Source: Candidatus Moraniibacteriota bacterium (GTDB lineage Bacteria; Patescibacteriota; Minisyncoccia; Moranbacterales; UBA11712). From it: 64,000 nt of DNA. The number at the start of each line of letters is the position of its first letter. Positions within the stretch are counted from its first letter, which is position 1. The translations under genes were made by a program, and so were the position numbers. Below the pieces are notes generated by a model. That model was not told where the DNA came from and made no database searches. It worked only from the letters and a program-made list of their open reading frames with translations. The DNA lies in the NCBI GenBank assembly GCA_028695025.1, contig JAQVJV010000003.1:637-64636 (forward strand). Reading direction: 5' to 3'. Below, piece by piece: positions 572 through 36,968 of the stretch.

Positions 572-901
<330 letters not shown>

Positions 902-2193: not shown

Positions 2194-2194
2194 A

Positions 2195-4237: not shown

Positions 4238-4276
4238 TTTGTTTTTTATGCCATGTATTTTACATTTTATATGATT

Positions 4277-7360: not shown

Positions 7361-7592
7361 TCCAATATTTATATTATTTTAACAAAATTAATTTAAAATT
7401 CAAGTGCGTGGACTAAAATCGGGATACAATTAGAACTTATTCCAAAAATCGCTTTCGTGGCGAAAATCTTGAAAAATCTGCAGTGAGTATAGAATTTTTG
7501 AGATAATCCTCAACTTAGAACAATCGATTTACGGGCATTGAACATCCTGTATCGTTTCTCACCAAATACCGGCAATCGGAGTTTTCCGATGG

Positions 7593-7967: not shown

Positions 7968-8120
7968 AAAGCTTACCGGAATAATCAATCAACATTTAAT
8001 GTTAAATCGGATGTGTTAGAGATTTAGAGACTCCCCGACCCGTCAGCTAAATAAACGTAAAAATATATTTGCTTATCGAAAAATCGCCCTGCAAGAATCT
8101 GGGGAGTAGGCCCATCTTGA

Positions 8121-13577: not shown

Positions 13578-13617
13578 ACCAAAAAAATTGGGCTTTTGCC
13601 TTTCTTGGATTATATCA

Positions 13618-13650
13618 CGAAAAAAAGAGTCCGGGAAGGCTCTTTTTTCT
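13618..13650 (-). terminator. Intrinsic terminator (A-tract / stem / T-tract) downstream of the 577-aa gene
   Basis: GAAAAAAAGAGtccgggaaggCTCTTTTTTCT is seen in the sequence; on the minus strand the hairpin is followed by TTTTTTT. A TATAAT-like -10 for the 1818-aa gene lies just beyond it at about 13607..13616. Confidence 0.45.
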
Positions 13651-13720
13651 AGGTTTAAAGGCTAAATTCCAAAGACTAAAGCGATGAAGCATAAAGTCAA
13701 CAACTTTGGCCTTTTCGTTG

Positions 13721-15310: not shown

Positions 15311-15425
15311 TTTTTTATTTTTAAGGTTATAAAAGAAATTATAAAAAAAACCTTGTTGCAGATATCTTCTCCCGGCAGGAATGATTTTTTTTCTCTTCGG
15401 ATCCATATTCTGTTTTAAATTATTT

Positions 15426-15917
15426 TTATTTTTTCTCTCCTGCGATGAAATCAACTTCTTCTTCCCGAAATTTTCCGACCAGACCCAACACGTCCGCCTT
15501 GCTGACTATCCCAAGCAACTTTTTGTTTTCATCCACGACGGGAATAGGGTTGACTTTTTTTTCCTGGATAAGCCTGATAAGGTTGGTCACCTTTTCATCC
15601 GGCCGGATCGTGACCGCGTCAATCGACATTATGGAGGAAGCGTCAGCCGATAAGATCTCTTTCAAATTACCAGCTTTCTCCGGGAAATACTTGGAAATTT
15701 TAAGATCTTCCAAAATTTTTATGAGCGACGGGATATGCAATTTCTCAAAATCCCGGGTAAGAAAGTCGTTTTCAGTTATCATCCCGACCAATGCGCCGTC
15801 CTCAACCACGGGAATTCCGCGAAAATTATGATCAATCATCATCTTCGCCACTTCACTGATTTTCGTTTTTGGATCGACCGAAACCACCTCCTTGGTCATT
15901 ATGTCTTCTACTTTCAT
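15426..15917 (-). CDS. CBS-domain pair protein
   Basis: Two CBS modules (…EVVSVDPKTKISEVAKMMIDHNFRGIPVVEDGALVGMITENDFL… and …IMSIDAVTIRPDEKVTNLIRLIQEKKVNPIPVVDENKKLLGIVSKADVL…). Confidence 0.8.
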   Translation of the reverse strand: MKVEDIMTKEVVSVDPKTKISEVAKMMIDHNFRGIPVVEDGALVGMITENDFLTRDFEKLHIPSLIKILEDLKISKYFPEKAGNLKEILSADASSIMSIDAVTIRPDEKVTNLIRLIQEKKVNPIPVVDENKKLLGIVSKADVLGLVGKFREEEVDFIAGEKK

Positions 15918-16032
15918 AAAAAATCTCCTATTGATTTATTATAGCACAAACGCAATCATTCCGTCATTCAGAGTCTGTTAAAAATCTCTTTTTTGGAATT
16001 TGCGGCAGAATACGAAGATTCTGAACAGGCTC

Positions 16033-18948: not shown

Positions 18949-19298
18949 TTTTTTTATAGTTAGTTGAACGTGCTTTTGGTTTATTTTAGGGATATGGGAA
19001 TCAACTATTTTATTTCAACTTAATAAAATCTTGGAAGTTTTTTAGGCGCATACTGCCCATCAATCCTCAATTGATTTTCCGGCAATTTCATTATCCTTAA
19101 AGACCCCCTTCCTCCTGCTATTTTCACGACTGCAATAATTCATCCCATTATTTCTTTTATAGAAGCCAATAAAAATGTTTCACGGAAGTTTTGTCTTGAC
19201 CCTTATTCCGAGTTACTCCAAGAAATCCGATATTTTTTATATTGGCTTGCATATAGGAAATAATGGATTTTTTTAACTTAAATTTCAAAATTCAAAAT

Positions 19299-22200: not shown

Positions 22201-25200
22201 TCTCCCGTCCAGTTAGTGGTTCCCCAAGTGTCTCCCGCGGAAAGGAGTTCCGAAGAAAGAGGGGCGGATTCATAGGAAGAGGTGGACTGCATGGTGAGGA
22301 GAGCGGTCGGGCTTGTGGTGCCGATGCCGACGTTCGTTCCATTGTTGAAAAGGTTTCCGGTGGGTGTCCATTGGGTGGTGGAATTGTTCCAATAGAGGGT
22401 TTGTCCTGTATAGGTTCCGGCTTGGGTGATGGCGACAGAGGTTCCTCCGATTGAGAGGTTGGTGGCGTTGATGGTTCCGTTGACGTTCAGGCGATATGTT
22501 CCGATTGCGGTGGTTCCGATTCCCACGTTGGTTCCGTTGTCATATATCGATCCGGTGGAAAGGGTATTGGTTCCGTTCCATCGGGCGACATAGTTTGCAA
22601 GTCCCGTTCCCACGACGGCGGTTCCCGAGGTTCCGACCGAGAGGGTGTTTGATCCTAGGGTAAGGGTTCCGGTGCCTGTTGTGATTGTGTTTCCGTTGTA
22701 GGTTCCTCCCGTCACGTTGCCGGAGGAGGAAACGGTGAAGACATCGGCACCGATCACAAATTTGGAAGTTGGATTCGTCGTTCCTATCCCCACATTCCCC
22801 GAGGAATTCACGGTAACCACCGGAGCTCCGCCAGTGGCTCCCACTCCCAGATTGAAGCGACTGTTAGTCGCGTCGTAGCTCATCCAGGTTTCAGCGGCGG
22901 CGGAGGCGCCGAGGTGAATAGTGTCGCCCCCGAGCCATAGGTTAGCAAAGCGGTAGGAGTTCGATCCGAGATCATAGGTATCATTGGTCATCGGCGTGAT
23001 CGTTTGCGATTGTGCAGAATCGTTGAGAATGACGTAGCCGGAATTTGCCGCAGAGAGATAAAGATTTAAGTTCTCACTCGCCGACTCCGTCTGGATATAT
23101 CCCGGACCGTTGAATTTGATGTATCCAGCGGTGGTGTTAGTCATGTAGAAATCATAGGCCATGGAAACATCTCCCATCGAATTGAAGGTGGTCGGGACGT
23201 TGAAGATGGCTTGAGATGAGCTCACGGTGAGAAGATCAGTGCCGGCGTAGTTCAAGGTGAGAAGATTTCCGGTTCCGTCGCTTCGGACATAGAGGCCGGC
23301 GGCGGCCGCGTTGGTGGAGGAGTTGTAGAAATATCCGATGTAGTCGGAAACTGATCCGCGGGTGTCGAAAATATGGGTCGGGTTGGTGTTTCCTATTCCA
23401 ACATTTCCTCCGCGGGTGACGTTGAGAACTGCCGCGGTATCACCGCGAACTTCAAAAAGTGAGGATGGGCTGGTGGTGCCGATTCCCACATTTCCGGTTG
23501 TCGCCGAGACAAAGAACGGTGTCGTGGCTCCGATCCCGACTTGGAAAAGTCCGGTCGGGCTCGTCGTCCCGATCCCCACGTTCGTTCCATTGTTGAAAAG
23601 GTTTCCCGTGGGTGTCCATTGGGTGGTGGAATTGTTCCAATAGAGGGTTTGTCCGGTATAGGTTCCCGCGGTGGTGAGGGCGAGGGCGGTTCCGTTCATA
23701 TAATAGGAAGCGGCGTTGAGGGAACCGTTGACGTTCAGTTTGTAGGTTCCGACTGATGTGGTGCCGATTCCCACATTCGTCCCGTTGTCATATATCGATC
23801 CGATGGAGAGGGTGTTCGCGTCTGTCCATCTGGCGAGATAGTTTTGGGTTCCGGTTCCAAGAGCCGCGGTTCCTGTTGCGGGAATTGTGAGGGTGTAGGA
23901 CCCCGTGTTAATCGTTCCCGATCCGGAGAGAGTGACGCCGTTGTAGGTCGTGGCATACATTCCCCCGTTCACTTCGAGTTTGTAGTTGGGGTTGGTGGTG
24001 CCGATGCCGACATTGCCTCTAAAATAACTGTTTATTCCGCCGTAGTCCATTCCAATTCTTGCAACTTCTGTATTGGAGCTACCACCAGTAAACTGTAGAC
24101 CGTGGAAGGAACGAAAAATTGCGTTACTTCCATAGGTAGTTTCAATTTTATTATACGAATCCCCTCCATATTGGAAATTCACTGTGTGACCAGAAGTTAA
24201 GCCGCTTATCCCCCAAATCCTGCCATTTGCTGACTGAACAAGTAAATCCCCATTGACAAAAAGTTTGGCACTTGGCGAAGCGCTACCGATTCCTACATTT
24301 GTTCCGTTGTCATATATAACACCGGAAGAAATGGTGTTGGTTCCGGTCCAGCGAGTGACATAGTTTGCAAGTCCCGTTCCCACGGCGGCGGTTCCCGAGG
24401 TTCCGACCGAGAGGGTGTTTGATCCCAGGGTGAGGGTTCCGGTGCCTGTTGTGATTGTGTTTCCGTTGTAGGTTCCTCCCGTCACATTGCCGGAGGAGTT
24501 CACCTGGAATTGGGAAGTGGCACCCACGGAGAGGAGAGCGAGAGGGTTTGTTGTCCCAATTCCGACACTTCCACCGCTTAATATTGTAAGTCTCTCAGAA
24601 ACTCCGCTTTCGACTATATTAAAACTATTATTAGAATCATATCTGTTCATATGCCATTCATTGGCTCCGTTGTCCTTAAATACCAAGCCTTGGTCAGCAA
24701 CACTGTCTATTGCGATATTCCCGTCATATACATGTAATCTTTCACTAGGACTAGATGTCCCGATTCCAACATTGCCGGAAGCAACATTTACTGACAACCA
24801 TTCAATCGGATCGGGTGTGGCTGCAGCATTATAGATAGCGACATTACCCGTACTATCGAGATAACCAACAGCTCCCTTATCTGTTCCGTTTGTTTTGAAA
24901 CGTAATGTGCTTTCACCTCCCGTGCCAGTCGTGTCAATAGTCACATAGGTTGAAGCATTAGTCGCTTTGAATCTTGCGACTCCAATGCCAGTAATATGAA
25001 CTCCGAAAACATCGAGTTTTGTATTCGGACTCGTCGTCCCGATCCCCACGTTGGTTCCGTTGAAGTAGAAGTTGTCGCTTCCGGTGATGATGCCTTGGCC
25101 GGAGAAGTATGATACCTGGTATTGGCTCCCCGTTCCTCCGGCGACATAGTCAGTGCCGGCTGTGGCGGTGGAAAGGGCTCCGGTGCCGGTGGTGACTTTC

Positions 25201-28200
25201 AAGAGTCCCGTGGAAAGGGCGGAACTGACATAGGCTTGGGCGGTGTCGGCGCTCACCGTGGAACCGGAGATGGTGAGGGCAGTGAAGTTTCCGGTTCCGT
25301 TCACGTTCAGCTTGTAGGTTCCGACCGAAGTGGTGCCGATTCCCACGTTGGTTCCGTTGTCATAGATGACAGAACTTGAGATAGCACTGGTTCCATTTCC
25401 TTTGAGGAGATAATTGGAAGAGAAGGTTCCGGCTCCCGTGCCTCCCTGGGAAACATTGAGGTATTGCTGGGAAGTTATGGAGTTGGTTCCGTTCCAGACA
25501 GCTACATAGCCGTTGGTTCCGGTTCCAGTGACAGGATTGGTAAGAGCCGTTTGGAAGTATGAGGCATCGTGTCCTTGGAGATAGTTAGCGTTTAAATTGG
25601 TTATCTCGGTGGAATTGAGGACGGTGAAAGGGGCTCCGGAGTTGTAGTTGAAGGATAGCTGGTTTGTTGTTGATGCCCCTCTTCCGGTGACTGTTGCCAG
25701 GGTGTCAGCTTCTGTTGCGGTAATGGTAAGAGTATCCCCGGAGATTGCCGTTGTGGCTATTCCTCCACCATTGATGGTGAGAGTGTCGGTGGTTGAATTG
25801 GCAGTGGTGTTTCCAGATTGGGAGTTGATGGTGGCCCAGAGGTTTTGGTCTCCGGTGTTGGCGCCGGAGGAACTGCCGGTAAAGTTGGCGGCGGTGATGT
25901 TTCCGGTGAACTCTCCATTTCCTCCCACAGTGAGATTAGAGATGATGTTCGCGCTCCCTCCGATTCTCACATTTCCGGCGACATCAAGTTTCTGGCTCGG
26001 ATTCGTCGTCCCTATCCCCACATTCGTCCCATCATTGAAGAGATTGGCGTTGGCTGTCCAAGCCGATCCGTTCCAATAGAGGGTTTGGCCGGTGATTGAT
26101 CCGTTGGCAGGAAGTCCGGTGGCCAGGGTTCCTGCGGTATATAGACCGTTGGTAAAAGTAAGTCCTCCTGTTGTTTGGGAAGCTCCCGCTGTTCCTCCGG
26201 CATAGTATCCGGTAGCGTTCAAGCTTCCGTTCACGTTTACTCGGTAGGTTCCCACTCCGGTCGTCCCGATCCCCACGTTGGTTCCGTTGAAGTAGAAGTT
26301 GTCGCTTCCGGTGATGATGCCTTGGCCGGAGAAGTATGATACCTGGTATTGGCTCCCCGTTCCTCCGGCGACATAGTCAGTGCCGGCTGTGGCGGTGGAA
26401 AGGGCTCCGGTGCCGGTGGTGACTTTCAAGAGTCCCGTGGAAAGGGCGGAACTGACATAGGCTTGGGCGGTGTCGGCGCTCACCGTGGAACCGGAGATGG
26501 TGAGGGCAGTGAAGTTTCCGGTTCCGTTCACGTTCAGCTTGTAGGTTCCGACCGAAGTGGTGCCGATTCCCACGTTGGTTCCGTTGTCATAGATGACAGA
26601 ACTTGAGATAGCACTGGTTCCATTTCCTTTGAGGAGATAATTGGAAGAGAAGGTTCCGGCTCCCGTGCCTCCCTGGGAAACATTGAGGTATTGCTGGGAA
26701 GTTATGGAGTTGGTTCCGTTCCAGACAGCTACATAGCCGTTGGTTCCGGTTCCAGTGACAGGATTGGTAAGAGCCGTTTGGAAGTATGAGGCATCGTGTC
26801 CTTGGAGATAGTTAGCGTTTAAATTGGTTATCTCGGTGGAATTGAGGACGGTGAAAGGGGCTCCGGAGTTGTAGTTGAAGGATAGCTGGTTTGTTGTTGA
26901 TGCCCCTCTTCCGGTGACTGTTGCCAGGGTGTCAGCTTCTGTTGCGGTAATGGTAAGAGTATCCCCGGAGATTGCCGTTGTGGCTATTCCTCCACCATTG
27001 ATGGTGAGAGTGTCGGTGGTTGAATTGGCAGTGGTGTTTCCAGATTGGGAGTTGATGGTGGCCCAGAGGTTTTGGTCTCCGGTGTTGGCGCCGGAGATAC
27101 TCGCATTTCCCGCCAAAGTGAAGGTGTATGATCCCGAACCTGTCACAATCGTTCCGTTTCCGGAAAGGGTTACTCCGTTATACGTCGCGGCCGTCACCGC
27201 TCCCGCGTTTGTCACCTGGAACTGGTTGGCCGTCCCGACCGCGAGGCCATTGGTCCCGTCCGTCGGGAAAATAGCCCCCCCTGCTAGGCTCCAGATCGTT
27301 CCCGGCCCCCCGCTTGAGATGGCCGTATCCAGATCAGCCAGCACTTCCTGGACGTTCGCGGAGCTTGAGTTCGTGAACCCGCCAGTGAAGGCTCCGACCA
27401 TGTACGCGCCCGAATCGATGGCACTCGTCGCTTCCCCTAGCGACGTGGTTCCGCCGAAGATAAGATTATTCGATGAATTAATATTAATGTTACCGTTTGC
27501 GGTGATATCCGTGAAAGTAGGGCTTGCAACTGTATTGAGTGTGAGACTGATCCCTCCGCCAGCCGTACCGGTTCCTCCGCCGGTGAGATTTCCGGCCGTG
27601 TTCACGACAATCGGAGTAGAACCTTCCGCGACCGTGTTGTTGCTCGAGCCATAGACCGGAGAAATGGTGAGTGTGTTTAAATTGCGGGAAGTCGCGATTC
27701 CGTCGGCGCCCTCGAAGATCGCGCCTTTCTTGGTTTTGATCTGCACTCCGGCATCGGTGGCGGATGTCTGAAGTTTCCAGGAAACATAGTTATCATAATC
27801 CCCTGCCGCCTGATAGTTTCCCGCGGCTTGGAAATAGCTCGCCTTGTGCCCGCCCAAAAGTTCCGCGTTGAGATTCACGTTCAATATCCCGTTCGAAAGC
27901 GGTATGCTTCCGGCGGCGTTCCCGATCGTCTGGCCGGCAATGTTCATGGCCGTGCGTGCGAGCGGCACCGCGCCGATCCTTTTTCGGGGAATCATTTCCG
28001 CATCCTCTCCAACCCGGATGCCGACAAAATAGTTTTCGGCAGCGAAATTCAAATTGGGAAGCGGATTTGCTTCGCCGAGATAAACATCAAGAAGTCCGTT
28101 TTCGACCGCAACCTTTCGGGTTTCTTCCCAAATGCGCGTTCCGGCATCAGTGTCGGAAGGATACGGATCGCTTTCGGTCCGGTCAGCCGTATATATGGAA

Positions 28201-29447
28201 AAGCGGACATCGTATTCTCCGTTGGTGAGTTCCTTGTTCTGGCTGTCCATCAAGTAGGCGGATATTTCGATGTCACCCGGATGCGCTTCAAGGATTTGAT
28301 CGCCGGTTTCGGCCGCTAAGACCAAACCTTTATTGTTTTCCTGTCCACTGCCGCCGGAAGTTTCAGATAATTCATTCACAGCCTCAACTCCCGCGACTTG
28401 TCCCTTGTCCTCTTCATTACTGCCGGTAAGACGCAAACCTGACTTCTCTTCAAACTCTTGTACTTTCTGATGGCGGAACGCATCCTTCGCAAGTTCCGCG
28501 AACTTGTCGGCGCCTACTTTCAGCTGATCCACATTTTCTGCGACCTGGCTTCCCGCAAAACCAGCGACTTTGGAAAGCGCATCCACCCCGCGGTTATATG
28601 AAGCGTAAATTTTTTTCTCGCCCAGGTTTTCCCAATAGGCGAGATCCTTTGAAGTTATGTTACCGACTGCCATCAAAACGACCAGTAAGATGAAAGCCAA
28701 AGCCGGTTTCAAATTGTTGGATGAAAATTCCCGCAGGCTCGCCGACTCGATTTTTTTTCTCAAATCGAACTTCCTGATATTGATCTTATTGGGTTCCCCG
28801 ATCTTGGAAAGTTTAGAAAAACTTTTCTTGATCCCGGCCAGCGCTCCCGCGGACAACCGGCGCAACTCTTCCCAAACAATATCACCTTGAACTTCGCCCC
28901 GGTTTTCGGAAACGGTTTTTTCAATTTCAGCCGGTCCGGAAACAACGCTTCCTTTCTTTTCCGCCTCATCCGTTTTTGCGATTTTGGCGGCGGGCGCTTC
29001 CTTGGGAGAGTTGAGGGAAATGGAATCGCTTTTCAAGAATTCTCTCAACTCCGCTTTTCTTGCCTCGACTTCATCAACCGCGGCTTCCGGAATGGAAATT
29101 TCTTTTGCCGAAATTTTTTCTTCTTTCTTCTCCGCCGCACCTTCTTTTCCGCCGAGTTCTTTCGAAAGCCTTTCTTTGTATTTTTTCTTTTTTTCCTGGG
29201 ACGCTTTTGTGAACTCATTAAGCCATTCTTCGGTCGTATGCCATACGCCTTTTATTTTCTCCGCCTTGAGTTTCCCCTGCCGCGCGGAAAAGTTTATGTA
29301 GTTTTTCGAGTACGCTGAAGTCTTCGCGATTTCAGATAGCGGGATAAAATTCGTCTCTTGTCCGTCTTTTTCAGAAAGCAAAAAACGGCCCTTTTCGGAA
29401 GCGTTTTTGGAATTGATTTTCGGTTTTTTTGTTTCTGTCTTTTTCAT
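19299..29447 (-). CDS. 3382-aa membrane-anchored giant tail-fibre-like protein: cytoplasmic HTH_17 (excisionase-family) N-terminus, single TM, phage-tail-fibre repeat arrays, C-terminal Peptidase_S74 intramolecular chaperone domain and coiled coil
   Basis: The N-terminus FIPLSEIAKTSAYSKNYINFSARQGKLKAEKIKGVWHTTEEWLNEF fits the HTH_17 consensus (…GeL.a.kiGgrWri…). A TM helix follows at LKPALAFILLVVLMAVGN. The extracellular part has dozens of NGTNVGIGTT(S/N)P…L.V.G repeats plus a block of 20-aa NTTGYNNTALGxxSLYS repeats (Phage_fiber_2-like). The C-terminal SDVRMKKDIESMDSALDKVMALDPVTFHMK…HAGFIAQDVEKISPELV matches the S74 autoproteolytic chaperone, followed by a Q-rich coiled coil. Confidence 0.85.
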   Translation of the reverse strand: MKKTETKKPKINSKNASEKGRFLLSEKDGQETNFIPLSEIAKTSAYSKNYINFSARQGKLKAEKIKGVWHTTEEWLNEFTKASQEKKKKYKERLSKELGGKEGAAEKKEEKISAKEISIPEAAVDEVEARKAELREFLKSDSISLNSPKEAPAAKIAKTDEAEKKGSVVSGPAEIEKTVSENRGEVQGDIVWEELRRLSAGALAGIKKSFSKLSKIGEPNKINIRKFDLRKKIESASLREFSSNNLKPALAFILLVVLMAVGNITSKDLAYWENLGEKKIYASYNRGVDALSKVAGFAGSQVAENVDQLKVGADKFAELAKDAFRHQKVQEFEEKSGLRLTGSNEEDKGQVAGVEAVNELSETSGGSGQENNKGLVLAAETGDQILEAHPGDIEISAYLMDSQNKELTNGEYDVRFSIYTADRTESDPYPSDTDAGTRIWEETRKVAVENGLLDVYLGEANPLPNLNFAAENYFVGIRVGEDAEMIPRKRIGAVPLARTAMNIAGQTIGNAAGSIPLSNGILNVNLNAELLGGHKASYFQAAGNYQAAGDYDNYVSWKLQTSATDAGVQIKTKKGAIFEGADGIATSRNLNTLTISPVYGSSNNTVAEGSTPIVVNTAGNLTGGGTGTAGGGISLTLNTVASPTFTDITANGNININSSNNLIFGGTTSLGEATSAIDSGAYMVGAFTGGFTNSSSANVQEVLADLDTAISSGGPGTIWSLAGGAIFPTDGTNGLAVGTANQFQVTNAGAVTAATYNGVTLSGNGTIVTGSGSYTFTLAGNASISGANTGDQNLWATINSQSGNTTANSTTDTLTINGGGIATTAISGDTLTITATEADTLATVTGRGASTTNQLSFNYNSGAPFTVLNSTEITNLNANYLQGHDASYFQTALTNPVTGTGTNGYVAVWNGTNSITSQQYLNVSQGGTGAGTFSSNYLLKGNGTSAISSSVIYDNGTNVGIGTTSVGTYKLNVNGTGNFTALTISGSTVSADTAQAYVSSALSTGLLKVTTGTGALSTATAGTDYVAGGTGSQYQVSYFSGQGIITGSDNFYFNGTNVGIGTTGVGTYRVNVNGSLNATGYYAGGTAGASQTTGGLTFTNGLYTAGTLATGLPANGSITGQTLYWNGSAWTANANLFNDGTNVGIGTTNPSQKLDVAGNVRIGGSANIISNLTVGGNGEFTGNITAANFTGSSSGANTGDQNLWATINSQSGNTTANSTTDTLTINGGGIATTAISGDTLTITATEADTLATVTGRGASTTNQLSFNYNSGAPFTVLNSTEITNLNANYLQGHDASYFQTALTNPVTGTGTNGYVAVWNGTNSITSQQYLNVSQGGTGAGTFSSNYLLKGNGTSAISSSVIYDNGTNVGIGTTSVGTYKLNVNGTGNFTALTISGSTVSADTAQAYVSSALSTGLLKVTTGTGALSTATAGTDYVAGGTGSQYQVSYFSGQGIITGSDNFYFNGTNVGIGTTSPNTKLDVFGVHITGIGVARFKATNASTYVTIDTTGTGGESTLRFKTNGTDKGAVGYLDSTGNVAIYNAAATPDPIEWLSVNVASGNVGIGTSSPSERLHVYDGNIAIDSVADQGLVFKDNGANEWHMNRYDSNNSFNIVESGVSERLTILSGGSVGIGTTNPLALLSVGATSQFQVNSSGNVTGGTYNGNTITTGTGTLTLGSNTLSVGTSGTAAVGTGLANYVTRWTGTNTISSGVIYDNGTNVGIGSASPSAKLFVNGDLLVQSANGRIWGISGLTSGHTVNFQYGGDSYNKIETTYGSNAIFRSFHGLQFTGGSSNTEVARIGMDYGGINSYFRGNVGIGTTNPNYKLEVNGGMYATTYNGVTLSGSGTINTGSYTLTIPATGTAALGTGTQNYLARWTDANTLSIGSIYDNGTNVGIGTTSVGTYKLNVNGSLNAASYYMNGTALALTTAGTYTGQTLYWNNSTTQWTPTGNLFNNGTNVGIGTTSPTGLFQVGIGATTPFFVSATTGNVGIGTTSPSSLFEVRGDTAAVLNVTRGGNVGIGNTNPTHIFDTRGSVSDYIGYFYNSSTNAAAAGLYVRSDGTGNLLTLNYAGTDLLTVSSSQAIFNVPTTFNSMGDVSMAYDFYMTNTTAGYIKFNGPGYIQTESASENLNLYLSAANSGYVILNDSAQSQTITPMTNDTYDLGSNSYRFANLWLGGDTIHLGASAAAETWMSYDATNSRFNLGVGATGGAPVVTVNSSGNVGIGTTNPTSKFVIGADVFTVSSSGNVTGGTYNGNTITTGTGTLTLGSNTLSVGTSGTAVVGTGLANYVARWNGTNTLSTGSIYDNGTNVGIGTTAIGTYRLNVNGTINATNLSIGGTSVAITQAGTYTGQTLYWNNSTTQWTPTGNLFNNGTNVGIGTTSPTALLTMQSTSSYESAPLSSELLSAGDTWGTTNWTGDFASGFTHTTGYTDALTDTTVVPTTNYLYQISYTVTGRTAGTFTISFGSESKGGLYSTGTWGPKATGTGTLSITPTSDFNGTIVISIKRITGTYSPTYVLNDSTGTSALEIRSSTASLANTFIGRYGGRYNTTGYNNTALGYQSLYCNTTGYSNTALGTYSLYCNTTGYNNTALGVNSLYSNTTGYNNTALGYQSLYSNTTGYSNTSLGTSSLYSNTTGYQNVALGVNSLYSNTTGYYNTALGVNSLQYNTTGYNNTALGVNSLYSNTTGYNNTALGYYSGRYISGGGNNQTSYSSLYLGYDTRALADGDTNEIVIGASAIGAGSNSVTLGNTSITKTILQGNVGIGTTNPQRLLHVNGTSRFDSYLLLNSGETNSGLIGSSDLIGTTGGASDDVTLRSASDIYFRVSNSAALGAMIQATSGNVGIGTTTPGAKLYVNDNSVDISSASRFLTVSDLKTSGTLTGDHYAVSFRANATNYSNQNGHALNLWALDGVVTNPAGYTATSITGVRGYVIGTHTSGTVNNAYGVVGNIEQQGSGGTISDARALYARVSATGTVTNSYGLYIDSIGGTNTWGVYQYSSSNKNYFAGNVGIGTTAPGYKLEVYTGTATGYVVTSDGTWGSTSDVRMKKDIESMDSALDKVMALDPVTFHMKSEDSSDPLHAGFIAQDVEKISPELVSTNASGYKGLSYAMFTPMLTKAIQEQQAMINEQGSTISDQQLQIESQSTSVAELQTAVNDKLNIVGTAISDQQLQISTLQSQLADAETRLTESENNLLAFETSVNDTLGAMIETEKTLTARVFDHEDRIKDLEDKLATMTVTAGGEIPENIVTTDEDGNVKLAGLFEAKVVQAEKVKADETVAGAYSVKNDEDAPTVGDGTVLSVKKDDDNDGWDDITKVDGKSARVETAAVTETAKIFVSFEGDPGSRYWIEKIRDAETGRLTGEFSVNVLEAIAQDIKFSWFIVEEK
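21365..21835. repeat. Tandem 60-bp repeat, ~8 copies, encoding 20-aa Phage_fiber_2-like units (NTTGYNNTALGxxSLYS)
   Basis: Seen in the sequence: units of TCCCAGGGCGGTGTTATTGTATCCGGTGGTGTTGGAGTAGAGGGAATTCAC with minor variation. It lies inside the giant gene, is in frame, and has no spacers. Confidence 0.8.
25036..25880. repeat. Copy 1 of a ~845-bp perfect direct repeat inside the giant gene (period 1227 bp)
   Basis: Identical nucleotide blocks at 25036..25880 and 26263..27107. Encoded peptides in the ORF track, including antisense ones, are identical (for example 25122..25379 equals 26349..26606). Confidence 0.8.
26263..27107. repeat. Copy 2 of the ~845-bp perfect direct repeat inside the giant gene
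   Basis: See copy 1. On the minus strand both copies encode GANTGDQNLWATINSQSGNTTANSTTDTLTINGGGIATTAISGDTLTITATEADTLATVTGRGASTTNQLSFNYNSGAPFTVLNSTEITNLNANYLQGHDASYFQ…. Confidence 0.8.
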
Positions 29448-29795: not shown

Positions 29796-29960
29796 TATTA
29801 AAACACTACTTATCGGATTTCTTATATTTTATTTTATTTATAATTTCGGAGAAACAACCCATCTGATATTTCTATAAAAAATTATTTGCTACAAAAAAAT
29901 TTTGTCAAATCGCCTCAAAAAAATTCGCCGGGAAATATAGTTATCCACAGTTAATTTCAG

Positions 29961-30033
29961 CGAACAGTGAAGAAAGATCGATGAACAATATTTCGCGATT
30001 GATCACTGTTCGCTGATCATTGTTCATCGATCG
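29961..30033 (-). promoter_or_regulatory. Two interleaved perfect inverted repeats immediately 3' of the 216-aa gene stop (CGAACAGTGA/TCACTGTTCG and GATCGATGAACAAT/ATTGTTCATCGATC)
   Basis: Seen in the sequence. The arms are arranged A1-B1-A2-B2, so the hairpins are mutually exclusive or form a pseudoknot. They abut the stop at 30034, and no clean U-tract follows. Confidence 0.3.
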
Positions 30034-30684
30034 TTATCTCTTCGCCCAGCCGAACATCTGGCCGAAAGCGTCGCTCAAAAGATCGAAGATGGAAACGTTC
30101 GGCGCTCCGGTATAGAAAGCGAGCTTTCCGGATTCCGCAAAATTCCCCCATTTGTCTTTTGCGTTCACGACATATGAGTAGGAAGTGCTGTAATTCAATT
30201 TGGTTATTTCGGCGCTATGCACGAATCCATAACCGTCTTCGGAAATTATTTTTCCCTCCGTCTGCCCTTCGCGCATATACTCGATCGAAGAGAGGCACGG
30301 CTTGTTGGTCGTCCAGCTCAAAAGGAACCGGACTTCTTCATCTGTTTTGGTCATCAAAAGTTCTGAGCGCAAATCTTCGATTTCGGGAGCGAGCGACTGC
30401 TGGCCTGACGGAACCGTAATGGCCGCTCCTCCGAAATTGATGTGCGGCGTCCGGAAGTTTTCACTTGAAAAAGAATTTGTCGCATTTTGATTCTCCTCTT
30501 CGCCCAAGACGGATCCGCTCGGACTTTGCTCGTTTGAAATACTGGCCGTTTCCACGTTCGTTTTCTTCTCAATATATTTTGAATAAAGGTACGGAGAAAA
30601 ATATCCGAGTGAAAATATGATCGTGGCCAGGAGCGCGTATTTTGAAAATTTTTTTAATTTCATAAATCCTGAATTATAAATCAA
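30034..30684 (-). CDS. Membrane-anchored small secreted protein with a purple-acid-phosphatase-N-terminal-like (FN3) domain
   Basis: N-terminal anchor KYALLATIIFSLGYF. The C-terminal VRFLLSWTTNKPCLSSIEYMREGQTEGKI…HSAEITKLNYSTSYSYVV resembles the Pur_ac_phosph_N beta-sandwich. The start may be the internal Met (MKLKKF…). Confidence 0.6.
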   Translation of the reverse strand: MIYNSGFMKLKKFSKYALLATIIFSLGYFSPYLYSKYIEKKTNVETASISNEQSPSGSVLGEEENQNATNSFSSENFRTPHINFGGAAITVPSGQQSLAPEIEDLRSELLMTKTDEEVRFLLSWTTNKPCLSSIEYMREGQTEGKIISEDGYGFVHSAEITKLNYSTSYSYVVNAKDKWGNFAESGKLAFYTGAPNVSIFDLLSDAFGQMFGWAKR

Positions 30685-30686
30685 AT

Positions 30687-31865
30687 TTATCGCGAGCTCA
30701 AAGCCTCAAGCGGATCAAGCGAACTCGCCCGTTTGGCCGGACCGATCCCGGTCGCGAACCCGATCACGATCGAGAACAGCAGGATGAATCCCAAAAACCA
30801 CAAAGGATAAGCAAAGAGATCCATCGGCTTCCCGCCGAAATATTTGGCCGCCAGATTGACGATTATATTCACCGCCTGCCCCGACAAAAATCCAAAAAAC
30901 AAACCGGCCAGCCCGCCGCAAAGGCCCATGAGCGTTGATTCAATCACGAATAGAGAAAGAATATCCGTTTTCGAAGCGCCGATTGAGCGCATGATCCCGA
31001 TCTCATTTGTCCTTTCAAGAAGAGTGACCGTCATCGTGTTGAACATTCCGATCGCGGAAACGGCAAGAGTGATGATTCCGAACAAGCCCAGAATGATATT
31101 CACAACACGGAAAAGCTTGTTTACCTCCGCCACCGTTTCCGAAAGGGATGAAACCGTGAAGCCTATTCCGGAAATTTTTTCTTTCACGGAATCCATCACC
31201 TCGCTCGATCGGCATCCCACCTTCGCTTTGGCATACTGCAAACCGCCGGGGAGGTTTAGGTTATCCGGAAGGACGTAGAAAATCGTGTCCTCCCCTTCAA
31301 CAACTCCCGCTATTGCAAAATCAGGCTCATCGATATTGGAACTGCCCTTCCCAGCCGGGGAAAGCAGCGTGAAAGATATCTTCTGGCCGGCCAATTCTTC
31401 CGGATTTTTTCCAAGCGTTTTCCCGATGGCCGCAGTCACCAAAATTTCCTTGGAACTGCTTTTGCCAAGCATTTCTCCTGAAAACACTTTGAGCCCCTCA
31501 AGATTGAGATACCCGAGGGTCGCCACCTCCGCCCGCGAATCAAGGCTTGTATCGCCCAGCGACATCCGCGAATTGAAATTGAAGCTGGTCTCCACGCCGG
31601 AGACGCCTTCTATTTTTTTCATTTCATCAATAGCTTGGCCCGTCAAAAAAATTGCGTCCTGCTCGTTGGGAGAAACGTCAAGCGAGGTGAGCGCCCCGGA
31701 AGCAGTGATTGTCTCAAGAAGGGCGTCCTGGAGGCCGTACCCGAGCGAAACCAAAAACAGGATCGCGCCAAATCCGATCCCCATACCTAAAACCGTGAGG
31801 ATGGTCCTCCCTCTTCGGGCCGTGAACATGCGGGTGGAAAGTTTGAGTATATCGCGGGCAGTCAT
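30687..31865 (-). CDS. ABC transporter permease, MacB/FtsX family, with a large extracytoplasmic domain
   Basis: TM1 is followed by a ~200-aa periplasmic domain and then three C-terminal TMs of the FtsX pattern (…ERTNEIGIMRSIGASKTDILSLFVIESTLMGLCGGLAGL…). It lies immediately downstream of the ATPase gene. Confidence 0.8.
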   Translation of the reverse strand: MTARDILKLSTRMFTARRGRTILTVLGMGIGFGAILFLVSLGYGLQDALLETITASGALTSLDVSPNEQDAIFLTGQAIDEMKKIEGVSGVETSFNFNSRMSLGDTSLDSRAEVATLGYLNLEGLKVFSGEMLGKSSSKEILVTAAIGKTLGKNPEELAGQKISFTLLSPAGKGSSNIDEPDFAIAGVVEGEDTIFYVLPDNLNLPGGLQYAKAKVGCRSSEVMDSVKEKISGIGFTVSSLSETVAEVNKLFRVVNIILGLFGIITLAVSAIGMFNTMTVTLLERTNEIGIMRSIGASKTDILSLFVIESTLMGLCGGLAGLFFGFLSGQAVNIIVNLAAKYFGGKPMDLFAYPLWFLGFILLFSIVIGFATGIGPAKRASSLDPLEALSSR

Positions 31866-31880
31866 AGAAAAGTTTAAAAA

Positions 31881-33488
31881 TTACATAGAATATCTCGCCA
31901 GCATGATGATCTCCATCTCCCGCGCCACTTTCACCGCCGTGCGCCGGTCAAGCCCCACCCCGCCTTTCATGACCGGTCGGTCGGCAAGATCAAGGAATTC
32001 ATCCATATTAAGCTCGTTCATGAGGCGCATCTTTACATATTCCACGAATTTCGTCTTTTCCATATCTTCCATTCTCAACTTGAATTTTTCAATCAGATAA
32101 TCGGAAATATCCTTCGTCGATATTTCAATATTCCCGAAATCAATTTTTTTTACCTGATCGAAAATTTCCCGCACGCCTTCGACCAGTTTTTTAGCCTGAT
32201 ACTTGTCCCACCCCGCTCCGCCCTTTTCCTCTGATTCAGCAAGCCTTTTTTCCAAATCTTCTGCGGTTATTCCTCCTGCGATATAATCCTGAAAAATCTT
32301 TTTAGCTTCATTCAGCTGGGCGTCAGGAATATGGAAAAAGACATGGGAAAATATTTGCTGGGCCTTGAAAGGAATGAGCAATGTCCCGAGCTGGTCCGGC
32401 GTCAGATTGCGAAATGATTGCATAAGGGCCAACAGTTCCGGAGCAATTTTTTCTTTGCGCCGCTCTCCCAGCTCGCTTTTTTTCACCAGCTCGTATTCTC
32501 CGCCCAATTCCCAGTCTTCTCCCAATTTCCCTTCCTTGAAAGCTTTCCAGGCCTTGGCAAGTTCGTCCTTTTTCACCAATTCCCATTCCTGATCGAGCTG
32601 TCCTTTCTGATGAAGCTCCCAGGCTTTGCCCAATGTCCCTTTCTTGAAAGCCGCCCATTCTTCATCCATTTTCTGTTTTTCCTTGAGATATTTTTCGTCT
32701 ATTTCCACTCCCGGCTTCTTTTTGTCCATGACCTCGACCACTTTGGTAACTTTTCCGTCCTGCATATGTATCACCTTGTCGCCGTATTCCAGATGAGTCG
32801 GATCATGGGTTACCAGAATGACCAATTTTTTATCCACTTCGTTGAGTTCCTTGAGGATGGTAAGCACGTTATACGTCGCTTTGGAATCCAGGTTTCCCAC
32901 CGGCTCGTCGGCAACGATTATGGCCGGGCTGTTGATGAGCGACCGCGCAATAGCCACCCTTTGCCTTTGCCCGCCGGAAAGGTCGGCCGGAAACTTTTCG
33001 CCTTGCGCTTCGATCCCGAATCTTTTGAGGAGATTCAAAGCGTCTTTTTTTCTGGTCTCGGGATCATCATTGACAAAAGCCCGTGGAAGACAAACGTTAT
33101 CGGCTATCGACAGTGTGGGAACCAGATAGAACGATTGGAAAATCATACCGACTTTGCGCCGATGATATTCCAGCTTGTCCTTTTCCGTGAAGGCCGATAT
33201 GTCCCGGCCGTCAACCTCCACTTTTCCGCTTGTCGGCGGAAGCAGCCCGGAAATGACGTTGAGAAGCGTGGACTTCCCGCAACCGGAAGGCCCGAAAAGG
33301 ATCACGTATTCATGGGGATAAAATTCAAGGTTGATATTCTCCAGGGTATGCGCTTCATTCAATTTTCCCCGATTGAAAATAATATTCAGGTTTTCGATTT
33401 TGATAAGGGGCTTCAATGTTTCATTCATGACTATTAGTATATCATAAAAATTATTTTTACCGGAAAAGAAAAACAAAAAAAATCCCAT
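31881..33488 (-). CDS. ABC transporter ATP-binding protein (MacB/LolD-like) with a ~280-aa non-canonical C-terminal extension containing Trp-centred 12-aa repeats
   Basis: Walker A GPSGCGKST; ABC signature LSGGQRQRVAIARSL; Walker B IIVADEPVGNLD; H-loop VTHD. After about aa 255 the sequence is repeats LGKAWELHQKG / QLDQEWELVKKD / ELAKAWKAFKEG / KLGEDWELGGEY followed by an uncharacterised helical domain. Confidence 0.8.
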   Translation of the reverse strand: MGFFLFFFSGKNNFYDILIVMNETLKPLIKIENLNIIFNRGKLNEAHTLENINLEFYPHEYVILFGPSGCGKSTLLNVISGLLPPTSGKVEVDGRDISAFTEKDKLEYHRRKVGMIFQSFYLVPTLSIADNVCLPRAFVNDDPETRKKDALNLLKRFGIEAQGEKFPADLSGGQRQRVAIARSLINSPAIIVADEPVGNLDSKATYNVLTILKELNEVDKKLVILVTHDPTHLEYGDKVIHMQDGKVTKVVEVMDKKKPGVEIDEKYLKEKQKMDEEWAAFKKGTLGKAWELHQKGQLDQEWELVKKDELAKAWKAFKEGKLGEDWELGGEYELVKKSELGERRKEKIAPELLALMQSFRNLTPDQLGTLLIPFKAQQIFSHVFFHIPDAQLNEAKKIFQDYIAGGITAEDLEKRLAESEEKGGAGWDKYQAKKLVEGVREIFDQVKKIDFGNIEISTKDISDYLIEKFKLRMEDMEKTKFVEYVKMRLMNELNMDEFLDLADRPVMKGGVGLDRRTAVKVAREMEIIMLARYSM

Positions 33489-33536
33489 ACGGGACTTGCT
33501 AAAATTATCCGCTTAATTTTGAATTTCCCTGGAGAC

Positions 33537-34463
33537 TCAACTCGCTTGGACAGAAATCTGCTTTAGTCCAAAAAATTTTATCGCCGTATCATCAGTCGCT
33601 TCTTCCACTTCGGTGAATCCGATATTTTTTATTTCAGCTATTTTTTGAGCAATATATCGGATATATATCGGTTCATTCCTTTTTCCCCGAAATTCCTGCG
33701 GGGCAAGAAATGGAGAGTCCGAATCAAGCATGATCCTGTCAATTGGAATCATCTTGATTGCCTCCGCTAAATCATTAGCTCTCTCCGCCGGCTTCGGATA
33801 AGTGATATTTCCCGAAAAAGAAAAATATATATCCGGCAATTCCAGAAACTTTTCCGTGTCGTTTTTATTTCCGGAATAGCAATGAAGGACGAATTTCGTC
33901 AAGGTTTGGCCTTGAGGAATTCCGAAAGCTTTGCTTGAGGAAGGGAAAGGCCGAACCTTAGACGAAATTGGATTTTTTTTCAGATTTAGATCTTGATTTT
34001 TATTAGATATTGGATATTGGATATTGGATATTATTTCATAAACATCATCCCAAGCATCGCGGCAATGAACCACAACCGGCAAATTCAAATCTTCAGCAAT
34101 ACTTAATTGTTTTTCGAATAGCGCTTTTTGCTGTTTGATCTGGTCTGGATTTTTGTAACAGGAATAATCAAGGCCGATTTCACCAATCGCTTTGACCTTT
34201 GGATTGGCAGCTATTTTTTTCAATTCCTCCATATTGTCATCCGTCGGCAAGGAAAGTTTTTCCGAAGCGTCATGGGGGTGAAATCCAACGGAAGAAAAAA
34301 TATTTTCATAATTCTCCGCGAGATCGATGCTCTTTTTGCTTGTTGCCAGGTCTACTCCAATATTCACGATCGCTTTTCCACCCCCGGCAAAAAACCGCGC
34401 AATCACTTCGTCGCGGTCTTCATCGAATTTTTCAAAATCCAAATGGGCGTGAGTGTCAATCAT
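33537..34463 (-). CDS. tatD: TatD-family metal-dependent deoxyribonuclease/hydrolase with a ~38-aa low-complexity insertion
   Basis: MIDTHAHLD; …GEIGLDY…; …LPVVVHCRDAWDDV… ; …VLHCYSG…; …MLDSDSPFLAP. The insertion ISNIQYPISNKNQDLNLKKNPISSKVRPFPSSSKAFGIPQGQTLTK lies between the third and fourth metal-ligand motifs and contains a 7-bp microsatellite (GATATTG x4) at about 34020..34050. Confidence 0.8.
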   Translation of the reverse strand: MIDTHAHLDFEKFDEDRDEVIARFFAGGGKAIVNIGVDLATSKKSIDLAENYENIFSSVGFHPHDASEKLSLPTDDNMEELKKIAANPKVKAIGEIGLDYSCYKNPDQIKQQKALFEKQLSIAEDLNLPVVVHCRDAWDDVYEIISNIQYPISNKNQDLNLKKNPISSKVRPFPSSSKAFGIPQGQTLTKFVLHCYSGNKNDTEKFLELPDIYFSFSGNITYPKPAERANDLAEAIKMIPIDRIMLDSDSPFLAPQEFRGKRNEPIYIRYIAQKIAEIKNIGFTEVEEATDDTAIKFFGLKQISVQAS

Positions 34464-34476: not shown

Positions 34477-35895
34477 CTATCTTATTCTTGGAAACAGCGC
34501 TTCTGTTTTTCCGATCTCAATTGCTTTTAATATTTTTCCCGAAGTTTCCGGCATGAAAAATTTTAGGAGATTCGCAATACCAAATAAATCGCCCAATAAT
34601 TTTCCCATAACTTCATCGAATTTTTTCTTGTTAGTTTTTGCCAACTCCCACGGCTTCATCTCTTCGATAAATTTATTATTTTCCCGAACAATATTCCATA
34701 TATAATCTAAAGCTTTATCAGGCTCTATTTTATCCAAGAAATTTGAAATTTTCTCATTGGTATTTATTTTAGACAATTGAATATCAGATAGTGAAATCAA
34801 CTTTAACACTCTTGAAACCAAGTTTCCAAGACCATTAGCCAAATCCGCATTGTATTTTTCCGTCATCCGCTCCATTGTCACGTCAACGTCTTCTCCAAAA
34901 GTCCCCGCGCCCATGAGGAGATACCGTGTTCCGTCCGTTCCGAATTTTTCCAGCATCTCGTCGATGGAAATAACATTGCCGATTGTTTTTGACATTTTGC
35001 GCCCGCCGGAAAGCAGATGCCCGTGCACAAACATTTTTTTAGGAAGTTCAATTCCGAGATGCAAAAGCATAATCGGCCAAATCGTAGCATGCACCCGCAA
35101 AATATCTTTTCCAATAAACTGCACGTCCGCCGGCCATTGCCATGGAATATTTTTCTTATCACCACCCCACCCCAAACCCGTGAGATAACTCAAAAACGCA
35201 TCAAACCAGACATAAGTCGTGTGGCTTTCATCAAACGGCAAGGGTATCCCCCATTTCACATTTTTTCTCGAAATGGAAATATCTTTCAATTTTTCTTTTT
35301 TGAGGAACGACAAAATCTCACGTTTGTATTTCTCCGGCTGGATTAAGAATTTATCACTTTCGATTTTCGCAATCAACTTATCTTGCATATCAGCCATCTT
35401 GAGAAGATAGCTTTCCTCTTTCACGCGCTCACAAACAGTATCGTGATCAGGACATCGGCCATTTACTAAATCTCCTTCGTTTTTGAATTGCTCACAACCA
35501 ACGCAATACAGTCCCTCATATTCGCCTTTGTATATCACGCCTTCGCCATAAAGCTTCTGCAAAACTTTTTGGACGGCTTTTTCATGATTTGGATCAGTGG
35601 TTCGGATGAAGTTATCATATTTGATATTCAGGCTTTCCCAGAGGCTTGTGAACTCTTGCGAAAATTTATCTACAAATTCTTTCGGATCCTTTCCGGATTC
35701 CTCGGCTTTCTTCTCAATTTTGAGGCCATGCTCGTCAGCCCCCGCCAGTAAGAATACATCTTTGTCTCGCTCTCGATGAAACCGCGCCAGCACGTCTCCG
35801 GCAACCGTTGTGTACGCATGTCCGATATGGGGCTTGGCGTTGACGTAATATACCGGCGTGGTGATATAAAATTTGTTTTTTTTGTTTTCTGGCAT
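34477..35895 (-). CDS. metG: Methionyl-tRNA synthetase (short form, no C-terminal tRNA-binding extension)
   Basis: HIGH motif (PHIGHAYT), zinc knuckle CVGCEQF…CPDHDTVC, KMSKS motif (KMSKTIGN). Confidence 0.9.
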   Translation of the reverse strand: MPENKKNKFYITTPVYYVNAKPHIGHAYTTVAGDVLARFHRERDKDVFLLAGADEHGLKIEKKAEESGKDPKEFVDKFSQEFTSLWESLNIKYDNFIRTTDPNHEKAVQKVLQKLYGEGVIYKGEYEGLYCVGCEQFKNEGDLVNGRCPDHDTVCERVKEESYLLKMADMQDKLIAKIESDKFLIQPEKYKREILSFLKKEKLKDISISRKNVKWGIPLPFDESHTTYVWFDAFLSYLTGLGWGGDKKNIPWQWPADVQFIGKDILRVHATIWPIMLLHLGIELPKKMFVHGHLLSGGRKMSKTIGNVISIDEMLEKFGTDGTRYLLMGAGTFGEDVDVTMERMTEKYNADLANGLGNLVSRVLKLISLSDIQLSKINTNEKISNFLDKIEPDKALDYIWNIVRENNKFIEEMKPWELAKTNKKKFDEVMGKLLGDLFGIANLLKFFMPETSGKILKAIEIGKTEALFPRIR

Positions 35896-36266: not shown

Positions 36267-36968
36267 TTAATATGAAACAATCACGAACTCTCCTTTCAAG
36301 TTTTTTTTATTTTTCCAGTAACTTTTTATTTCTTGAATATTCCCTCGCTGAATTTCTTCAAACATTTTTGTAAGTTCGCGACCCACTACAATTTTAGCAT
36401 TTGGCTTGAATTTTTCTAAAAGTTCGAGGTTTTTGAAAAACCGGTGCGGCGAGTCAAAATAGACAATCGGGTATTTTGATTCCGCCATTTCCCGGAAAAA
36501 AGTTTCCCGCCCTTTTTTGTGAGGGGGAAAACCCAGAAATAGGAATTTATCCATGCTAATTCCAGCAGCACTCGCGATCGTTGCTACCGCCGATGGCCCT
36601 GGAATAGGAATAATTTCGACCTCTCCCTCACCCCCTCTCCTTGGTAAGGAGAGGGTTGGGGTGAGGTTTGCAATCAATCTATTTCCCGGATCAGAAATTC
36701 CCGGCGTTCCCGCGTCTGAAACCAGCGCCAAATCCTTACCGTTTTCAAGATGCTCCATGATTTTTTCCGTCCTGGAAAGTTTCGAATGATGATGGTAAGA
36801 TAAGAGAGGTTTTTTGATTTTGTAGCGGTCGAGCAGTTTCCTGGTGACACGCGTATCCTCGCAAAGTATCAGGTCGACCTCTCTCAGTACGCGCAAAGCC
36901 CGAAGAGTGATATCCTCAAGATTGCCTATCGGGGAGGCGACGATATATAACTTACCTAACTGATCCAT
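36267..36968 (-). CDS. rsmI: 16S rRNA (cytidine1402-2'-O)-methyltransferase RsmI (tetrapyrrole-methylase fold) carrying a short in-frame palindromic insertion
   Basis: LYIVASPIGNLEDITLRALRVLREVDLILCEDTRVTRKLL… and LVSDAGTPGISDPG match the family. There are about 11 extra residues (TPTLSLPRRGGEGEV) relative to the family spacing before IPIPGPSA. Confidence 0.8.
   Translation of the reverse strand: MDQLGKLYIVASPIGNLEDITLRALRVLREVDLILCEDTRVTRKLLDRYKIKKPLLSYHHHSKLSRTEKIMEHLENGKDLALVSDAGTPGISDPGNRLIANLTPTLSLPRRGGEGEVEIIPIPGPSAVATIASAAGISMDKFLFLGFPPHKKGRETFFREMAESKYPIVYFDSPHRFFKNLELLEKFKPNAKIVVGRELTKMFEEIQRGNIQEIKSYWKNKKNLKGEFVIVSY
36626..36666. repeat. Imperfect inverted repeat inside the rsmI coding sequence
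   Basis: CCTCACCCCCTCTCCTT-ggt-AAGGAGAGGGttggGGTGAGG, a 10+6 bp stem, seen in the sequence. It coincides exactly with the extra peptide in RsmI. Confidence 0.6.

Follow-up and report, generated by a model that had tools for sequence, protein, structure and literature searches.

A type VII ABC gene set with a conserved helical tail on its ATPase, neighbouring a giant fibre gene in Moranbacteria

The DNA analysed here, a 64,000-nt stretch of a Candidatus Moraniibacteriota genome (contig JAQVJV010000003.1; hereafter the window), encodes an ATP-binding cassette (ABC) ATPase, a permease and a small anchored protein resembling fibronectin type III (FN3) domains, followed by the gene of a giant fibre protein. 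Coordinates are positions in the window, and the relevant genes all lie on the minus strand; the three open reading frames (ORFs) that a preliminary description of this DNA had placed there are all present. Behind its nucleotide-binding domain (NBD), the ATPase carries a conserved and internally duplicated helical domain that matches no described domain in the libraries searched. The junction sequences give a gap of 15 nt between the ATPase stop and the permease and of 2-23 nt between the permease and the small gene, an operon-like spacing. The three genes and the parts of the ATPase are laid out as follows.

31881..33428, minus: ABC ATPase gene, most likely 515 aa (the ORF extends to 33488, 535 aa)
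32733..33407, minus: NBD, residues ~8-232 of the 515-aa ATPase (PF00005; AlphaFold2 predicted local distance difference test, pLDDT, 92-98)
33270-33293, minus: Walker A, GPSGCGKS
32958-32981, minus: signature, LSGGQRQR
32901-32921, minus: Walker B, IIVADEP
32802-32816, minus: H-loop, LVTHD
32454..32669, minus: Trp-repeat linker, residues 254-325, five 12-aa units and one degenerate sixth (lag-12 periodicity)
31884..32456, minus: C-terminal helical domain, residues 325-515, ~190 aa (316 representatives; pLDDT 90-97)
32355-32381, minus: motif LLIPFKAQQ, near-invariant, N-terminal in the helical domain
32151-32324 and 31893-32066, minus: two ~58-aa units with GGxG[LW]D[KR]R loops
30687..31865, minus: MacB-type permease, 392 aa (PF12704 and PF02687)
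30034..30684, minus: small anchored FN3-like protein, 216 aa from TTG 30684 or 209 aa from ATG 30663 (weak PF16656 match)

An ATPase with a linker and a helical tail

The ATPase matches PF00005 (ABC_tran) with an E value of 1.1e-35. As the preliminary description had proposed, its NBD is canonical: Walker A, Walker B, signature and H-loop could all be located, and the Q-loop is likewise present. The top NCBIfam models were LolD, DarD, DevA, MacB and FtsE, every one scoring under its curated cut-off, and the best solved relatives of the NBD in a PDB sequence search were YtrE, MJ0796 and LolD.

The region behind the NBD falls into two parts. The first is a linker in which Trp recurs exactly every 12 residues across five units; lag-12 identities amount to 18/60, a value that none of 20,000 shuffles reached. 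An extension of about 280 residues with Trp repeats had been described before, and both the extension and the repeats stand, whereas the count of four does not, as there are five Trp-bearing 12-mers and a degenerate sixth. Tandem Repeats Finder detected no DNA-level tandem repeat in the ATPase gene, and the Trp repeats therefore appear to be old and maintained at the protein level. The linker block has a fixed length, and its conservation is limited to the window and the eight nearest genomes at species level (loci L008-L015), with a single related element, FKEGKxxEDL, at the linker position in some other lineages. It thus looks like a clade-limited insertion that arose by an old, selected expansion. 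The AlphaFold2 model gives it low confidence (pLDDT 41-65).

The second part is the helical domain. The extension beyond the Trp repeats is predicted to be all-helical, and the domain reaches a pLDDT of 90-97 in the full-length model. Each ~58-aa unit consists of a helix, a second helix, a Gly-rich loop (GGxG[LW]DKR) and a long helix, with the motif GGxG[LW]DKRTAxK. Alignment of the two halves by hhalign revealed an internal duplication (probability 98.5%, E 3.7e-15), and a few family members contain three such units.

Searches for relatives of this domain agreed with the preliminary description, which knew of no homologue bearing such an extension. The extension alone gave nothing significant against Pfam at E<=10 (only VbhA, at E 0.046), no match in NCBIfam, PADLOC or PHROGs, and no Pfam or NCBIfam match to the known ABC C-terminal domains TOBE, NIL, CBS, DUF4162 and ABC_tran_CTD. 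The helical domain found nothing significant in the PDB by sequence and profile, or by Foldseek against the PDB and the viral folds of BFVD. A profile of the single 58-aa unit returned only two fragments of the tail-domain family and no other protein context. A match to a regulatory domain already known from other ABC ATPases would have undercut the preliminary description; none emerged from the profile, family-library and Foldseek searches. In addition, literature searches on Moranbacteria and Patescibacteria yielded no description of the tail domain or of the gene set. A defence-system reading was rejected because the matches were to generic NBDs only.

By eye, the conserved Gly-rich loop and basic helix start, which occur twice per chain, resemble a helix-hairpin-helix (HhH) or other phosphate-binding module, and a unit of that kind might tether the ABC system to nucleic acid, a nucleotide second messenger or lipid head groups. 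We consider this scarcely credible. The spacing is unlike the canonical HhH pattern GhGxxxA, Pfam contains no HHH match even at E<=10, and no PDB fold or profile matched. A weak single-sequence PDB match to the degenerate EF-hand pair of EFCAB6 (E 4.6e-4) is taken to be spurious, as the family profile failed to reproduce it.

To define the distribution of the tail, protein and genome collections were scanned. A word-indexed search returned 24 close clusters, nearly all fused to ABC_tran, and an exhaustive HMMER scan of 1.84 billion representatives returned 316 proteins at E<=1e-3, 223 of them at E<=1e-10. Even among ten divergent members, all ten carried ABC_tran and no other Pfam domain. With one genome scanned per species, the tail domain was found at 179 loci; among the 80 of these that were listed, nearly all are titled Moraniibacteriota/Moranbacteria or unclassified Patescibacteria. 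Some records, such as L008 (DATGZC010000105.1) and many with CAZ or CAY accessions, are titled 'Bathyarchaeia archaeon' or 'uncultured Bdellovibrionales' and yet have a Moranbacteria-type locus; L008 even keeps the rsmI-MetRS-TatD synteny, and such taxonomic labels or bins are probably wrong. As judged from these sequences, the tail extension is a hallmark of the Moranbacteria lineage and not peculiar to the window locus.

The permease and described type VII systems

The permease combines a MacB_PCD domain (PF12704, residues 21-230, E 1.4e-11) with an FtsX domain (PF02687, residues 261-385, E 9e-19). It has four hydrophobic segments (19-45, 250-280, 302-340 and 348-378), and an ectodomain of ~200 aa lies between the first and second transmembrane (TM) segments, which bears out the large extracytoplasmic domain ascribed to it earlier. 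Its best solved relatives in a PDB sequence search were YtrF, MacB and LolC/E/F. The pair thus has the features of a type VII system (MacB/FtsX, 'ABC3'), namely a canonical NBD and a 4-TM permease with a TM1-TM2 ectodomain and an FtsX-type C-terminal TM domain, as the preliminary description had held. Type VII ABC systems, among them MacB, LolCDE, FtsEX, YbbAP and BceAB, turn ATP hydrolysis in the cytoplasm into work outside the membrane. We know of no published type VII system in which a large folded domain follows the NBD.

Within this type, the pair falls outside the definitions of four well-described systems. The best solved match is YtrEF of Bacillus subtilis (PDB 9o9x/9o9y; YtrE E 2e-48, YtrF E 4.4e-22), encoded by the ytrGABCDEF operon. 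Like the window pair, YtrEF keeps the NBD and the 4-TM permease as separate proteins, the permease has a large ectodomain, and the organism lacks an outer membrane. However, YtrE (251 aa) has no C-terminal domain, unlike the window ATPase, and the similarity of YtrF to the window permease is confined to the TM region (residues 218-389). Nor does the window locus hold an operon of the ytrGABCDEF type with a GntR repressor and YtrBCD: genes for YtrA, YtrB, YtrC, YtrD and YtrG are absent from the window, and the flanking genes are TatD, MetRS and rsmI on the upstream side and those of the small and giant proteins on the downstream side.

MacB of MacAB-TolC shares the MacB_PCD ectodomain, the FtsX TM domain and a LolD/MacB-like NBD with the window pair. 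In MacB, however, NBD and permease are fused, whereas they are separate genes in the window; no gene for a MacA-type adaptor or HlyD-family protein lies in the window operon, unlike MacAB-TolC, and MacB has no comparable C-terminal cytoplasmic domain. Scores against the MacB equivalog NF007826 were 178 and 82 bits versus a cut-off of 966. Patescibacteria have no outer membrane. The LolCDE models likewise scored under their cut-offs (TIGR02211, 192.5 versus 307.75; lolCE, 47 versus 362), and there is a single permease gene.

FtsEX, with its partners EnvC, PcsB and CwlO, offers a working analogy: a type VII ABC system that relays cytoplasmic ATP hydrolysis to an extracytoplasmic partner, and whose ATPase takes cytoplasmic input, as we propose for the window ATPase. 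In contrast to FtsEX, the window ectodomain is of MacB type, and the candidate partner is an FN3-like anchored protein rather than a hydrolase or activator. The analogy could be taken further, in that the pair might be the lineage's FtsEX-like regulator of cell-wall hydrolysis or division, with the C-terminal domain docking the ATPase to cytoskeletal or divisome proteins. The type VII fold and the wide conservation as a stand-alone pair would fit, as would one locus that adjoins MreB/DUF4012 (L003) and another that adjoins a Mur ligase (L045); FtsE is known to contact divisome proteins (PMC3735124). Nevertheless, we regard such a regulator as improbable. The NCBIfam scores lie far under the cut-offs (FtsE, TIGR02673, 174.5 versus 264.85; FtsX models, <=45.7 versus >=225), the ectodomain matches MacB_PCD and no FtsX-specific ectodomain family in Pfam, and no peptidoglycan hydrolase or coiled-coil activator lies beside the pair in any sampled locus. 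Moreover, FtsE and FtsX are named in other Patescibacteria papers, and a separate FtsEX may exist.

Outside type VII, several ATPases also have an extra domain after the NBD, including MetN (C2/NIL), ModC and MalK (TOBE) and OpuAA (CBS), and the window tail would, like these, sit beneath the NBD dimer. These domains are beta-rich or CBS, have Pfam models and belong to importers, whereas the window tail is all-helical, internally duplicated and part of a type VII system.

Adjacency to the small protein and the giant fibre

The surroundings of the three genes contain the following features.

36968..36267, minus: rsmI
35895..34477, minus: MetRS
34463..33537, minus: TatD
33480..33497, minus: terminator-like hairpin 3' of TatD, overlapping the nominal ATG of the long ATPase ORF (junction sequence)
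29976..30032, minus: strong hairpin directly 3' of the small-gene stop, then CUUUCUUC; probable operon terminator, by inference of function
29881..29908, minus: promoter-like site TTGACA-16-AATAAT in the gap 5' of the giant gene (consensus match only)
19299..29447, minus: giant fibre gene, 3382 aa, context outside the ABC operon

At the upstream end, the long ATPase ORF opens with 20 codons (MGFFLFFF...) that are the T-run of the hairpin after TatD, and among the eight closest orthologues, seven have a longest possible ORF of 515-518 aa and the eighth one of 543 aa. M21 (33428) is therefore the most likely start of the ATPase, which gives a protein of 515 aa, and the 535 aa given in the preliminary description were not borne out.

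At the downstream end, the giant gene had been placed directly behind the three genes. It is co-oriented with them, but a 586-nt AT-rich gap intervenes. The hairpin at its start has a 15-bp stem followed by a U-rich run; a 121-nt stretch around it has a minimum free energy of -38.7 kcal/mol (z = -4.25), and none of 200 shuffles was as stable. Further along, TTGACA-16-AATAAT at 29908-29881 agrees with the consensus at 11/12 positions and is the best site in the scanned region. Because the hairpin and the promoter-like site both lie in this gap, the giant gene is probably a transcription unit separate from the ABC operon. Rfam gave only chance matches below threshold in the gap. A further AT-rich hairpin can be read at 29748-29796, minus (AAAACCGATATTT ... 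AAATATCGGTTTT, then a T-rich run); this hairpin is sited past the promoter-like site, on its downstream side, within what would be a long 5' leader of the giant gene, and might act as an attenuator.

The small protein matches the Pur_ac_phosph_N/FN3-like family PF16656 only weakly (E 5e-5, 24 bits versus a cut-off of 30), and its gene may start at ATG 30663, giving 209 aa. A conserved motif, (V/I)S(V/I)FDL...FGWA.K, lies at its C-terminus. Of the small PAP-N/FN3 anchored protein described earlier, the gene and the weak FN3-like match hold, whereas the N-terminal hydrophobic anchor is read from the sequence and stays below the hydropathy threshold. Genes of ~120 aa encoding four-helix bundles (PF05635, 23S_rRNA_IVP) are inserted between permease, small gene and giant at L001 (12807-13166) and L007 (11094-11462 and 12260-12625); the window has none, and ORFs at that position in L011, L017, L089, L097 and L099 are known by similar size and position alone. 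The PF05635 family includes Avd proteins of diversity-generating retroelements.

The giant protein carries a Peptidase_S74 domain (PF13884, residues 3039-3093, E 2.8e-16), also present in its orthologues at L009 and L089, and has one TM segment at 243-270 and a fibre-base domain at ~392-516. S74 domains are self-cleaving intramolecular chaperones. Its cytoplasmic N-terminus contains a motif of ~45 aa, LxPLSEIAKxSxYSxxYIxxxxRQGKLKAxKIxGxWHTTxEWLxEF (window 29447..29100, residues ~30-110), which recurs in L006, L007, L009, L012-L015, L027, L035 and L088-L134. Against Pfam, this motif matched no helix-turn-helix family, and a resemblance to excisionase-type helix-turn-helix domains was seen by eye only. 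The giant gene includes an exact 837-nt duplication (25033-25869 and 26260-27096, offset 1227 nt), either very recent or an assembly artefact, and at 21321-21881 ~11 copies of 51-nt (17-aa) units with 70-84% identity, encoding NTALGxxSLYSNTTGY-type repeats. On the downstream side of the giant gene (window 1..19000) is a block of further large secreted or surface proteins, among them proteins of 1818 aa (Laminin_G_3/DUF2341), 1027 aa (Calx-beta/pectate-lyase/dockerin), 971 aa (chitobiase C-terminal domain) and 680 aa (Laminin_G/dockerin). For a Patescibacteria genome, the presence of dockerin domains is unusual.

In order to place this arrangement among relatives, ORF maps were drawn for 87 loci with the tail-bearing ATPase, 66 of them informative for a large downstream gene. 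The permease adjoins the ATPase in all but ~2 loci with sequence downstream of the ATPase, and a small-protein homologue follows the permease in ~26. A large co-oriented gene within four genes downstream is absent from 51 of the 66 informative loci; in three of the 15 that have one, it encodes an RND or polytopic membrane protein. At nine sampled loci lacking the small gene, the neighbours include FolD, P-type ATPases, a Mur ligase, PGK and Nramp, and genes of this kind also follow the small gene in L020 and L031. Since most loci hold the pair among unrelated housekeeping genes and with no large co-oriented gene, neither the extension nor the ATPase-permease pair is dedicated to the fibre.

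A reverse scan of metagenome contigs with the conserved N-terminal motif of the giant yielded 47 loci. The small-protein gene lies directly upstream of a fibre with the base domain in all 27 informative loci, including L096, where ORF calling missed the small gene and tblastn recovered it. Two of the 27 (L106 and L111) have GyrB upstream instead of the ABC pair, and conversely nine loci have the ABC pair and the small protein without a fibre. At every locus with upstream sequence available, the short form of the small protein comes after the ABC pair. By adjacency, then, the small protein has ties to the ABC pair and to the fibre, to each independently of the other. Given the 27/27 adjacency and the constant position of the short form after the pair, a lineage-limited functional chain from the ABC system through the small protein to the fibre is plausible.

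Five loci (L106, L109-L111 and L113) have long-form small proteins of 330-650 aa, in which the giant-type N-terminal motif and a TM segment precede a complete small-protein ectodomain. In L106, L109 and L111, the next gene encodes a fibre with its own signal peptide, whose N-terminus matches giant residues 392-516 at 50-53% identity. Domain shuffling at these three loci (L106:3797-6853, L109:461-2775 and L111:7962-10638) has put motif and TM segment on the small FN3-like protein, the opposite of the window, where the fibre bears them and the small protein has an anchor only.

In close relatives, the order of tailed ATPase, permease, small protein and giant is always kept. Upstream of the module, the synteny may differ entirely: in the distant relatives L117, L120 and L123 the module follows genes 354-334-411 in place of rsmI-MetRS-TatD. 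The three-gene module is itself polymorphic. It is present in L117, L120, L123 and L027 and absent from L115, L122 and eight similar loci, which keep the orthologous giant at the same site; the genes -965 (ABC-like), 354, ~340 and ~411-490 aa flank it on one side and the giant on the other, and the flanks of L117 are 52-90% identical to those of L115 and L122. As orthologous flanks occur both with and without the whole set, the ABC-permease-small set behaves as one indel unit, and the giant persists without it.

These patterns bear on the role proposed in the preliminary description, in which the ABC system with the extension serves specifically to mature or release the giant S74 fibre next to it. 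The co-oriented adjacency in the window and its relatives and the constant company of small protein and fibre are in its favour. However, at ~50 loci the extension and the pair are conserved and neither a fibre nor a small protein lies near, so any fibre role would be secondary, and the fibres of L106 and L111, which adjoin a small protein, do without the pair. At the level of gene neighbourhoods rather than whole genomes, the pair is thus conserved where no giant fibre gene lies, in the spirit of the refuting condition set in the preliminary description. S74 self-cleavage needs no ABC system for maturation, and the giant gene is probably transcribed separately. A dedicated role is therefore very unlikely.

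A second possibility is that the pair is an ordinary MacB/YtrEF-like exporter or extractor of peptides, lipids or drugs with a lineage-specific decoration, and that its position beside the small protein and fibre is accidental. Its closest solved relatives (YtrEF, MacB and LolCDE) are consistent with this, as is its place among housekeeping genes at most loci. In the window, the ~30-kb block of large surface proteins downstream of 29447 makes a giant neighbour unsurprising, and the hairpin and promoter-like site set the operon apart from it. On the other hand, the short-form small protein always adjoins the permease at tight spacing, the three genes move as one indel unit, and the adjacency of module and fibre survives the complete change of upstream synteny. 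We consider an ordinary exporter somewhat unlikely on balance.

A proposed envelope machine

The reading we prefer, tentatively and at a little under an even chance, is a type VII ABC operon that performs general envelope work, with the tail as a control or docking module; in the window's lineage, the small protein would be its target and the fibre base possibly so. ATPase, permease and small gene would together encode a machine of MacB/FtsX fold, whose permease would be a homodimer of 4-TM subunits with MacB-type ectodomains, and whose NBD would carry a cytoplasmic tail that, as far as the scans show, appears restricted to Moranbacteria. Because the tailed ATPase and the permease are widespread as a stand-alone pair in Moranbacteria, their basic and ancestral job may be general envelope work by mechanotransmission or extraction. 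The tail could control the ATPase or dock it in the cytoplasm, by analogy with the regulatory domains of MetN, ModC and MalK and with the docking of FtsE to the divisome. In the window's lineage, the machine would also include the membrane-anchored FN3-like protein, on which the permease probably acts outside the cytoplasm. Since this small protein is an obligate neighbour of the fibre type, the machine may act by way of it on the fibre base, in assembly, anchoring or release.

Several points weigh against this proposal. The link between tail and regulation is drawn by analogy, no fold or sequence relative in the libraries searched hints at a function of the tail domain, and the full-length AlphaFold2 model (predicted template modelling score 0.52) shows no confident packing of the tail on the NBD. 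With regard to the fibre, the orthologous giant is retained at its site in ten loci that lack the ABC module, at ~50 loci the ABC pair stands with no small protein or fibre within 10 kb, and the adjacency among relatives may in part reflect inherited synteny instead of selection.

A bolder version would make the tail a new cytoplasmic adaptor for the ~45-aa N-terminal motif shared by the giants and the long-form small proteins, and thereby give an ultrasmall episymbiont ATP-dependent, inside-out control over the anchoring, deployment or release of its fibres. We hold this to be highly improbable.

Type VII ABC systems are a known kind; what is new here is a conserved, previously unannotated domain on a presumed mechanotransmission ATPase. 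Across much of a candidate phylum, a type VII ATPase keeps a duplicated and confidently folding tail without detectable relatives, which suggests that mechanotransmission takes a cytoplasmic input not recognised so far. In addition, the anchored FN3-like protein invariably precedes giant S74 fibres of the window's type and swaps a cytoplasmic anchor motif with them. This pairing offers an entry point to the question of how giant surface proteins, candidate host-attachment factors, are mounted in Patescibacteria.

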